A stretch of 11,224 bases of DNA. Source: a virus (lineage: Duplodnaviria > Heunggongvirae > Uroviricota > Caudoviricetes). The number at the start of each line of letters is the position of its first letter. The first letter of the stretch is position 1. This document shows, in pieces, positions 5,539 through 7,112 of the stretch. The notes beneath the pieces were generated by a model. It was not told the origin of the DNA and did no database searches. It saw only the letters and a program-made list of their open reading frames with translations. A program made the position numbers and the translations under genes. The stretch lies in the IMG/VR virus record IMGVR_UViG_2541047682_000007; one strand, written 5' to 3'.

Positions 5539-5767
5539 AGTCAAACATAGTGTTTCTAAAGTCTCTCGCATACCCTGCTAACACTCTCATTCTATTATGA
5601 TTGTTAGCAGACATGTGAGCTACAGGATGAAAAAGAGCAATCAATGAATACCTGTTCTCATCAAAAAGATTTTGTGCATAAACGAGAGCGGTATTTGAAG
5701 TGGTTTACTGAATTTGGCCACCTGAACAGAGGTGATATGCTCACCTCAGAACAACACAGGTGCCATA

Positions 5768-6070
5768 ATGAAAAAAAGAAATTTCAGCGCAGAGTTTAAA
5801 CGCGAATCCGCTCAACTGGTCGTTGACCAGAATTACACCGTGGCAGATGCAGCCAGCGCTATGGATGTCGGCCTTTCCACAATGACGCGATGGGTGAAAC
5901 AATTACGTGATGAGCGGCAGGGAAAAACACCAAAAGCCTCCCCTATTACCCCGGAACAAATTGAAATCCGTGAGCTCAGGAAAAAGCTACAACGTATTGA
6001 AATGGAAAATGAAATATTAAAAAAGGCTACCGCGCTCTTGATGTCAGACTCCCTGAACAGTTCTCGATAA
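5768..6070 (+). CDS. insN: IS911 OrfA (transposase N-terminal HTH/leucine-zipper protein, 100 aa)
   Basis: ATG at 5768 with AGGTG 5 nt upstream. Product [53 protein letters not shown]... matches IS911 OrfA as I recall it. The track ORF begins at an upstream GTG inside the left inverted repeat. Confidence 0.9.
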
Positions 6071-6096
6071 TCGGGAAACTCAGGGCGCGTTATCCT

Positions 6097-6915
6097 GTGG
6101 CCACTCTCTGCCATGTGTTCGGGGTCCATCGCAGCAGCTACAAATACTGGAAAAACCGTCCTGAAAAGCCAGACGGCAGACGGGCTGTATTACGCAGCCA
6201 GGTACTTGAACTGCATGGCATCAGCCACGGCTCTGCCGGAGCAAGAAGCATCGCCACAATGGCAACCCAGAGAGGCTACCAGATGGGGCGCTGGCTTGCT
6301 GGCAGACTCATGAAAGAGCTGGGGCTGGTCAGCTGTCAGCAGCCGACTTACCGGTATAAACGTGGTGGTCATGAACATGTTGCTATCCCTAACTACCTTG
6401 AACGGCAGTTCGCCGTGACCGAGCCAAATCAGGTGTGGTGCGGTGATGTGACCTATATCTGGACGGGTAAGCGCTGGGCGTACCTCGCCGTTGTTCTCGA
6501 CCTGTTCGCAAGAAAACCAGTGGGCTGGGCCATGTCGTTCTCGCCGGACAGCAGGCTTACCATGAAAGCACTGGAAATGGCATGGGAAACCCGTGGTAAG
6601 CCCGTCGGGGTGATGTTCCACAGCGATCAAGGCAGTCATTATACGAGCAGGCAGTTCCGGCAGTTACTGTGGAGATACCGGATCAGGCAGAGTATGAGTC
6701 GGCGTGGAAACTGCTGGGATAACAGCCCAATGGAGCGCTTCTTCAGGAGTCTGAAGAACGAATGGGTGCCGGCGACGGGCTATGTAAGCTTCAGCGATGC
6801 AGCTCACGCAATAACGGACTATATCGTTGGATATTACAGCGCACTAAGACCGCACGAATATAATGGTGGGTTACCACCAAACGAATCGGAAAATCGATAC
6901 TGGAAAAAACTCTAA
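6097..6915 (+). CDS. insO: IS911 OrfB frame (DDE transposase catalytic domain); functional product is the OrfAB fusion made by programmed -1 frameshift at A AAA AAG (6019-6025), spanning 5768..6915
   Basis: OrfB reading frame is -1 relative to OrfA. Slippery heptamer AAAAAAG sits at the OrfA codons AAA AAG (6020-6025). Product carries the integrase-core pattern (WCGDVTYIW...[10 protein letters not shown]...[12 protein letters not shown]). Stop TAA 6913-6915 lies just inside the right inverted repeat. Confidence 0.85.
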
Positions 6916-7112
6916 CTCGGTGGCCAGTTTTTGTTGACCACTTCAATGCAACAGTTCGCTATTGCAGGGGCGGCATCGGTTCGCCCTTTCAACCCGATTT
7001 TATCGGTACAGCATTCACGAAAAAACATTTTAACCGGAGCAGACTTTAAACAACCAAGAATGAAAAGCTTGCTCGAAAAGCTTTGGGATATTTTGAAACA
7101 ACAAGGCCGTCC

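Follow-up and report, generated by a model that had tools for sequence, protein, structure and literature searches.

Prophages at argW of Escherichia coli are known to decay. Among the CUS-3-like prophages of this locus, several strains have a neuO-dsdC distance of only 8-22 kb, down from about 38-40 kb (PMC9659370); the published survey gives sizes only, without the insertion sequence (IS) junctions that are mapped here. In E. coli K-12 the argW remnant of roughly 10 kb known as KplE1 (CPS-53) has lost its repressor and virion genes. Its 10.2 kb are bounded by CTGCAGGGGACACCAT cores, with intS and torI at opposite ends, and it is excisable in vivo (PMC2951348). A stepwise course of such losses has been described for IS150, an IS3-family element: in the long-term evolution experiment, 14 of 14 IS-associated deletions consisted of insertion, adjacent deletion and sometimes extension, reaching up to tens of kb and leaving the element without a target duplication at the deletion edge (PMC11708052). 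The subject of this report is an 11,224-bp stretch of viral DNA (IMG/VR record IMGVR_UViG_2541047682_000007, the whole of which is called the window below), in which an intact IS3-family element, ISEc52, stands between the immI region and the cIII-erf genes of a CUS-3-like prophage.

Compared with these systems, the window is best read as an internal portion of a CUS-3-like (P22-like) prophage that sits at argW in an E. coli of K1 type and has become defective, ISEc52 having replaced 27,895 bp of it; we place the probability of this reading at roughly 0.88. The window has the same endosialidase tailspike as CUS-3 of E. coli K1 strain RS218 (CP000711) and the prophage of strain N62, and in related complete genomes the same DNA sits at the argW-dsdC locus, between argW-intS-neuO and dsdC. 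The gene order, int-neuO-tailspike-immI ... cI-N-cIII-erf ... att, is shared with both prophages, and the early-left arm from erf to att is 99.9% identical to that of CUS-3 over 7113-11004. What sets the window apart from them is the missing 27.9-kb interior and the IS in its place. The module adjacent to immI (a ClpP-like gene and yafO) matches N62 and phage phiv205-1, but not the CUS-3 of RS218.

The likeness to KplE1 lies in the recombination module, as relatives of the window carry the same IntS, TorI and cores. The cargo differs: the K-12 interior holds gtr and tfaS, whereas here there is an endosialidase tailspike in the window and neuO in the relatives, just left of the window. The scar in the window, unlike that of KplE1, is still marked by an active-looking IS, and its flanks are undiverged from the intact prophage. 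With the IS150 deletions the window shares an IS3-family element without target duplication at the edge of a deletion of tens of kb; it differs in that intermediates of the window deletion have not been observed.

ISEc52 and the breakpoints of the deletion

The intact reference is N62, a cerebrospinal-fluid isolate with an IS-free CUS-3-like argW prophage of 40,161 bp between KplE1-type att cores. Window positions 1-5695 align to this prophage with 0 mismatches in 5695 bp, and positions 6946-11224 with a single 1-bp indel in 4279 bp. Both segments have the same orientation in N62, where 27,895 bp lie between them, and the deletion breakpoints so mapped coincide to the base with the two ISEc52 termini. 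Both flanks run collinear with the intact prophage, which rules out an inversion; a complete prophage in rearranged order is likewise not what the alignment returns. Since the flanks are undiverged from the intact prophage, the loss must be recent.

On the left, the break falls within a yafO-like toxin gene, beyond mnt and the ClpP-like gene. The full gene is 450 nt in N62 (L007 40189-40638), and the alignment of the window stops at 5695. On the right, the ATG of a cIII-like open reading frame (ORF) directly adjoins the end of the IS; the intact sequence ahead of this start reads ...GAAGGAGCATCCT immediately before ATG, and its native GGAG ribosome-binding site has been deleted. The initial annotation of this DNA, made from the letters alone, had set the breaks at sieA/mnt and at arf/erf and the loss at roughly 30 kb. 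A large internal loss is indeed what the alignment gives, at 27.9 kb, with both edges displaced: the left one lies in yafO, and the right one at the cIII-like start codon, 427 bp before the start of erf.

The missing interval holds 40 annotated N62 genes in addition to the truncated yafO-like gene. It begins with the upstream partner of yafO, a hkcB-like gene and three ejection proteins, and continues with the head-completion and DNA-stabilisation proteins, coat, scaffold, portal and both terminase subunits. Beyond the packaging genes it takes in Rha, the lysis genes, Q, the nin region, the replication initiator and helicase (O/P), and, in the immunity region, cII, cro, a LexA-type cI repressor and two small genes beyond cI. 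All virion genes except the tailspike fall within it. The functions first listed as absent (head, tail, DNA injection, lysis, nin, replication and c2/cro) are thus found in the lost interval, with the tailspike kept; the virion, lysis, replication and immC modules that a functional phage would need are lacking from the window and present in the 27,895 bp of N62.

ISEc52 itself is exactly 1250 bp long, beginning TGAAGTGG and ending CCACTTCA. It has the 5'-TG...CA-3' ends of the IS3 family and imperfect terminal inverted repeats (28 nt at 79% complementarity). The first frame, orfA (5768-6070), encodes 100 amino acids with an HTH_Tnp_1 domain (Pfam). A slippery heptamer, A AAA AAG, lies in the orfA frame at 6019-6025, and a -1 shift there would yield a 382-amino-acid OrfAB, free of stops, with the rve (DDE) core (Pfam) and an orfB end at 6915. 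Two overlapping frames, a -1 frameshift and a helix-turn-helix and DDE (rve) transposase are the mark of the IS3 family. The same 1250 bp occur with 100% identity at many unrelated chromosomal and plasmid sites of E. coli, which puts the element far beyond chance resemblance; the window copy is intact and, judged by its sequence, probably active.

The initial annotation called this element a complete IS911. Its length, inverted repeats, orfA/orfB layout and A AAA AAG site were read correctly, and only the name needs amending. By the ISfinder naming convention, elements are the same IS at about 95% or more nucleotide (about 98% protein) identity to the reference. Measured against a copy from Shigella dysenteriae that bears the IS911 family annotation, rather than against the ISfinder reference sequence, the window element falls short of this, at 94.2% nucleotide identity (72 differences over 1250 positions), with 368 of 382 OrfAB residues (96.3%) and 99 of 100 OrfA residues identical. 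RefSeq labels the identical copies "IS3-like element ISEc52 family". The element is therefore, on sequence comparison, very close to IS911 and of the same architecture, and its proper name is ISEc52. Both elements measure close to 1250 bp (1249 bp in the S. dysenteriae copy used here), both have the orfA/orfB layout with -1 frameshifting at A AAA AAG, and identical simple insertions of ISEc52 carry the 3-bp target duplication of IS911. The right ends agree throughout the terminal 37 nt shown, and the left ends differ at three bases, with GGTTTAC in the window element versus GGCACAC in the S. dysenteriae copy, whose left repeat agrees with the IS911 sequence.

The bases bordering the element are ATT (5693-5695) on the left and ATG (6946-6948) on the right, as had been read from the start, with no target-site duplication. 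Identical ISEc52 copies that are simple insertions, in strain AR_0058, are flanked by perfect 3-bp duplications (GTT/GTT and AAC/AAC), which makes the ATT/ATG mismatch informative. Such flanks had been taken to mark an IS-mediated adjacent deletion or a recombination between IS copies, and the collinear segments of N62, 27,895 bp apart, bear this out. An apparent 6-bp microhomology, suggested by a BLAST left match that extended to 5701, was dismissed on comparison of GGATGT with TGAAGT, which agree at only 4 of 6 positions. The target sites were also compared with the IS ends, as in the targeted insertion known for IS911, and matched them at only 10-12 of 40 positions, the level of chance. With no microhomology and no repeat-like target, neither illegitimate recombination nor targeted insertion is supported.

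Related alleles and the probable course of the deletion

Deletions bounded by ISEc52 recur in the same prophage (Table 1). The element has the same sequence and orientation in all five forms, and in all of them its flanks are mismatched. Strain 19AR0253 gives the same matches as 19AR1321, in which alone the junctions were mapped.

Table 1. ISEc52-bounded deletion alleles of the argW prophage; junctions are in N62 coordinates, in the orientation of the window.
Allele	Left junction	Right junction	Left flank	Right flank	Loss (bp)
Window	9022	36918	ATT	ATG	27,895
CEA212U	6837	36918	GAT	ATG	30,080
19AR1321	7194	37071	TAA	CAA	29,876
PE144	10707	40847	GTT	CTA	30,139
AHB22, second copy	26237	33866	GGT	CTT	7,628

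The closed genome of CEA212U is closest to the window. It shares the right junction of the window, its left junction is displaced leftward by 2,185 bp, and its remnant measures 11,290 bp between att cores. Against the window there are 0 mismatches in 3469 positions on the left side and 2 in 5529 across the IS and the right side. Among complete genomes the right junction of the window is found in CEA212U only, and the corresponding intact site in 332. The left junction occurs in 0 of 5,426 complete E. coli genomes, 55 of which have the intact yafO site, and single scans of the metagenome and GTDB contig collections returned no match to it.

Most probably the window form arose in two steps. ISEc52 would have inserted by copy-out-paste-in transposition at the cIII start, duplicating ATG, after which a deletion anchored on that copy would have removed everything leftward as far as the ATT in yafO. 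The second step could have taken either of two routes: RecA recombination with a second, same-orientation copy newly inserted in yafO, where it would have duplicated ATT, or a transposase-driven adjacent deletion. Because all ISEc52 copies are identical, the RecA and transposase routes are inseparable by sequence. The product would be a remnant of ~13.5 kb with no repressor and no virions that keeps the tailspike, immI, erf-abc and torI; it may also keep intS, neuO and both att cores, as its relatives do. From att core to att core its expected size is 40,161 - 27,895 + 1,250 = 13,516 bp, about 13.5 kb in place of the roughly 12 kb first suggested. The order of these events and the enzyme behind the join are what we infer from the case. 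That CEA212U has an identical right junction and a different left one would fit a right junction serving as fixed anchor, from which deletions grow leftward, and agrees with the series of insertion, deletion and extension documented for IS150 (PMC11708052); its form equally allows a 2,185-bp leftward extension of a window-type ancestor.

Several points weigh against this history. None of the 5,426 complete genomes carries the supposed precursor, ATG-IS-ATG at the cIII site; the sole genome with that junction is CEA212U, itself a deletion form. Nor does the IS occur at the ATT site in any complete genome or in the metagenome and GTDB contig scans. As no precursor genome has been found, the order of events is unobserved, and if CEA212U descends from the window form, their shared right junction is uninformative as to which junction came first. 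The identity of all ISEc52 copies, moreover, would make a recombinant IS unrecognisable from its sequence.

It must also be asked whether the join exists in the cell. The strain might carry ISEc52 twice, at the ATT and at the ATG site, with a separate duplication around either copy and the intact 28-kb interior in between, the pair having been collapsed into one during assembly. ISEc52 is a multi-copy element, with a median of several places per genome, and the absence of the left junction from the genomes and collections searched means that the join has no independent confirmation. A closed genome, CEA212U, nevertheless combines the same right junction with a remnant of this kind, comparable IS-bounded deletions occur in four further closed genomes, and the two-copy configuration at the ATT and ATG sites is found in none of the complete genomes; a mis-join at the repeat is thus very improbable. 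A deletion independent of the IS, arising by illegitimate recombination or from a double-strand break, with ISEc52 entering during repair or inserting later at the exact junction, appears about equally improbable. Insertion of IS elements into breaks without target duplication has been proposed to occur during large rearrangements (PMC11708052), which would favour such an origin. Against it, both ends of the deletion match the ISEc52 termini to the base, ISEc52 borders each of at least five independent deletions of this prophage, and the break sites lack microhomology; an insertion at the junction after the fact would have left a 3-bp duplication, and none is present.

The immI-erf neighbourhood might, finally, be a native order: a short phage or satellite with immI beside cIII-erf, into which an IS was afterwards inserted in the ordinary way. 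Mosaicism is strong among lambdoid and P22-like phages, and the cIII-erf module occurs in many different phages. Here, however, a single intact prophage contains both flanks in essentially identical form, at a distance of 27.9 kb; the left one breaks off inside a toxin gene, the right one starts at an ATG stripped of its ribosome-binding site, and the target duplication of a plain insertion is absent. Adjacency of immI to cIII/erf without an IS was found in no phage or genome record searched; the initial annotation had named such native adjacency in intact relatives as a point to look for, and neither N62 nor CUS-3 has it. The mid-gene break and the collinear N62 match already refute a native mosaic order, and an IS-anchored deletion from a CUS-3-like prophage is the reading that is retained.

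Two apparent sources of further junctions were set aside. The IS of AR_0058 might have been taken for the precursor at the cIII site; it lies ~200 bp upstream, and in a different phage. In genomes H31-H33, which seemed to share the left junction, the match to window 1-6947 proved to be stitched together from an IS inserted inside ant. The first copy in AHB22 (L003 23490-24739) is a plain insertion in ant with an imperfect duplication: its left flank reads ATC and its right flank ATT, the latter being the form of the intact sequence. In FDAARGOS_1302 (L008 5208-12435), another IS3-family element, for which an AL1L pseudoknot is annotated, is present twice in the same prophage, in opposite orientations; one of its rearrangements removed most of the tailspike, and in the other an ejection-protein gene and erf, both truncated, are joined. 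The match in APEC E19019 (H35) is similar to that of FDAARGOS_1302, as far as the sequence search goes. ExPEC XM (L009 10103-15935) has a related neuO-endosialidase phage with a conventional xis-int pair beside neuO. The integrase of that copy is a different one, which means that the neuO-tailspike cassette travels with more than one integration module; its place is between pgl and bioA (PMC9659370).

What the deletion probably means for the locus

A remnant without cI, cro, N, Q, replication, lysis and nearly all virion genes should undergo no induction that kills the cell and should yield no particles. It may still be excisable, by analogy, because its relatives keep the recombination module of KplE1 (intS, CTGCAGGGGACACCAT cores and torI); excision as a circle in vivo has been observed for the KplE1 of K-12 only (PMC2951348). 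For annotation, the locus is a defective, repressor-less, non-inducible K1-specific prophage remnant and not a phage, with an IS whose name is ISEc52.

IS-bounded deletions without target duplication are textbook matter, and the decay of CUS-3-like argW prophages has been published already. The case is real but ordinary prophage decay. What it adds is one more allele with base-exact breakpoints, obtained, as first advised, by alignment to an intact CUS-3-like genome, together with the finding that many of these alleles have ISEc52 at their edges. It also provides a case from nature of stepwise deletion with an IS3-family element as anchor, and the differing IS-bounded alleles, with their essentially identical flanks, could serve as typing markers of sub-lineages. 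Even as they decay, CUS-3-like argW prophages often retain neuO, which has been shown to give K1 strains protection from K1 phages. The repeated, independent trimming by ISEc52, with at least five alleles in one orientation, might be imagined as convergent domestication, in which selection for a non-lethal, excisable, capsule-modifying island and not neutral decay has shaped the locus. If that were true, each result would be a KplE1-like module of ~11-13.5 kb keeping intS, torI, the att sites, neuO and the endosialidase; we consider it unlikely. The initial annotation had also spoken of a domesticated remnant. Domestication is undemonstrated. At the same argW prophage locus other strains lose the tailspike, and others have a truncated neuO (PMC9659370).

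Genes and att sites of the window

The features of the window are collected in Table 2.

Table 2. Features of the window, with coordinates in the 11,224-bp stretch.
Feature	Coordinates	Strand	Evidence
Endosialidase tailspike, 981 aa, kept	256..3201	-	Pfam P22 Head_binding, endosialidase beta-propeller, tail-spike, Peptidase_S74 chaperone
ant antirepressor, intact	3302..4204	-	Pfam P22_AR_N, P22_AR_C
sar antisense RNA of immI	4205..4271	+	Rfam RF00262, 83.9 bits versus gathering score 43, E = 7e-17
arc-like repressor	4437..4589	-	Pfam Arc, E = 5e-12
mnt-like (Arc/RHH family) repressor	4704..4952	+	Pfam Arc, E = 1e-10; RefSeq relatives: Arc family DNA-binding protein
ClpP-like protease, 178 aa, last intact gene left of the IS	4952..5488	+	Pfam CLP_protease, E = 2e-11
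yafO-like toxin gene, 3' remnant of 52 codons; left breakpoint	5537..5695	-	Pfam YafO_toxin positions 56-101 of 101
Intact ISEc52 (IS911-like, IS3 family)	5696..6945	+	Flanks ATT and ATG, without target duplication
cIII-like 56-aa ORF; right breakpoint	6946..7116	+	phrog_550 CIII, E = 1e-22; identical to WP_001183771.1 in N62 and CEA212U
erf recombinase	7373..7978	+	Pfam ERF, E = 4e-44; region 99.9% identical to CUS-3 erf region
Early-left accessory genes	7978..10966	+	SSB-like, abc2 anti-RecBCD, DUF7739, Ead/Ea22-DUF551, frameshifted DUF4752, ASCH-annotated, small ORFs
16-nt repeat TTGCAGGTTCGATTCC	10989..11004	+	Exact match to CUS-3 attL and attR cores; "attR core" in the CUS-3 GenBank record
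torI excisionase; window ends at its stop codon	11024..11224	+	Identical to WP_001163428.1 TorI in relatives; PHROG excisionase family

The tailspike gene is identical to that of the N62 prophage, and its fusion of a P22 head-binding domain to an endosialidase (Pfam Head_binding and End_* domains) is that of a Lederbergvirus. Next to it, the immI region is recognised by the joint presence of ant, arc, mnt and the sar RNA. In P22 immI, sar is an antisense regulator of ant; it overlaps the 5' end of ant and a small upstream ORF. In AHB22, CEA212U and 19AR1321, ISEc52 abuts or interrupts ant at the window-equivalent positions 3488, 3510 and 3867, within 380 bp. The three positions suggest a local hot spot of insertion or selection against ant.

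The ClpP-like gene directly follows the mnt-like gene, and in intact relatives the yafO-like toxin pair comes next. Its product gives a weak Pfam CLP_protease match, and PHROG families of head-maturation proteases match as well. It stands in the slot that sieA has in the gene order of P22. PADLOC, applied to the ClpP-like gene, the yafO pair and the neighbouring ORFs, returned no defence-system match.

Right of the IS, the cIII-like ORF is followed by two small overlapping ORFs and then by erf, the SSB-like gene, abc2 and several ea-type genes, the accessory assignments here resting on profile matches and on the RefSeq annotation of relatives. These early-left genes have been left without their native upstream promoter region, and a consensus scan of the junction for a hybrid outward promoter, formed from TTGACC of the right repeat and reading into cIII-erf, found none. 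The DUF4752 gene is cut short at 10161-10449, where a 65-amino-acid ORF covers profile positions 2-47 of 84; since the gene is annotated as frameshifted in both N62 and CEA212U, the defect is older than the IS deletion. A 1-bp deletion in N62, at window-equivalent 9205, breaks a 172-amino-acid gene that the window keeps intact.

At its right end the window has torI, the recombination directionality factor of a KplE1-type module. The KplE1-type attR core lies 74 bp past torI in relatives, outside the window; intS and the duplicated CTGCAGGGGACACCAT cores are present in CEA212U, N62, PE144 and 19AR1321, with both sites beyond the window edges. A second copy of TTGCAGGTTCGATTCC is found in the T-arm of argW. 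Two argW-derived repeats thus bracket torI, TTGCAGGTTCGATTCC (T-arm) upstream and the experimentally defined KplE1 core CTGCAGGGGACACCAT (3' end of argW) downstream, as seen at window 10989-11004/11024-11224 and at L001 9767-9797/20763-21087. The deposited CUS-3 record stops short of the probable excisionase gene of this phage.

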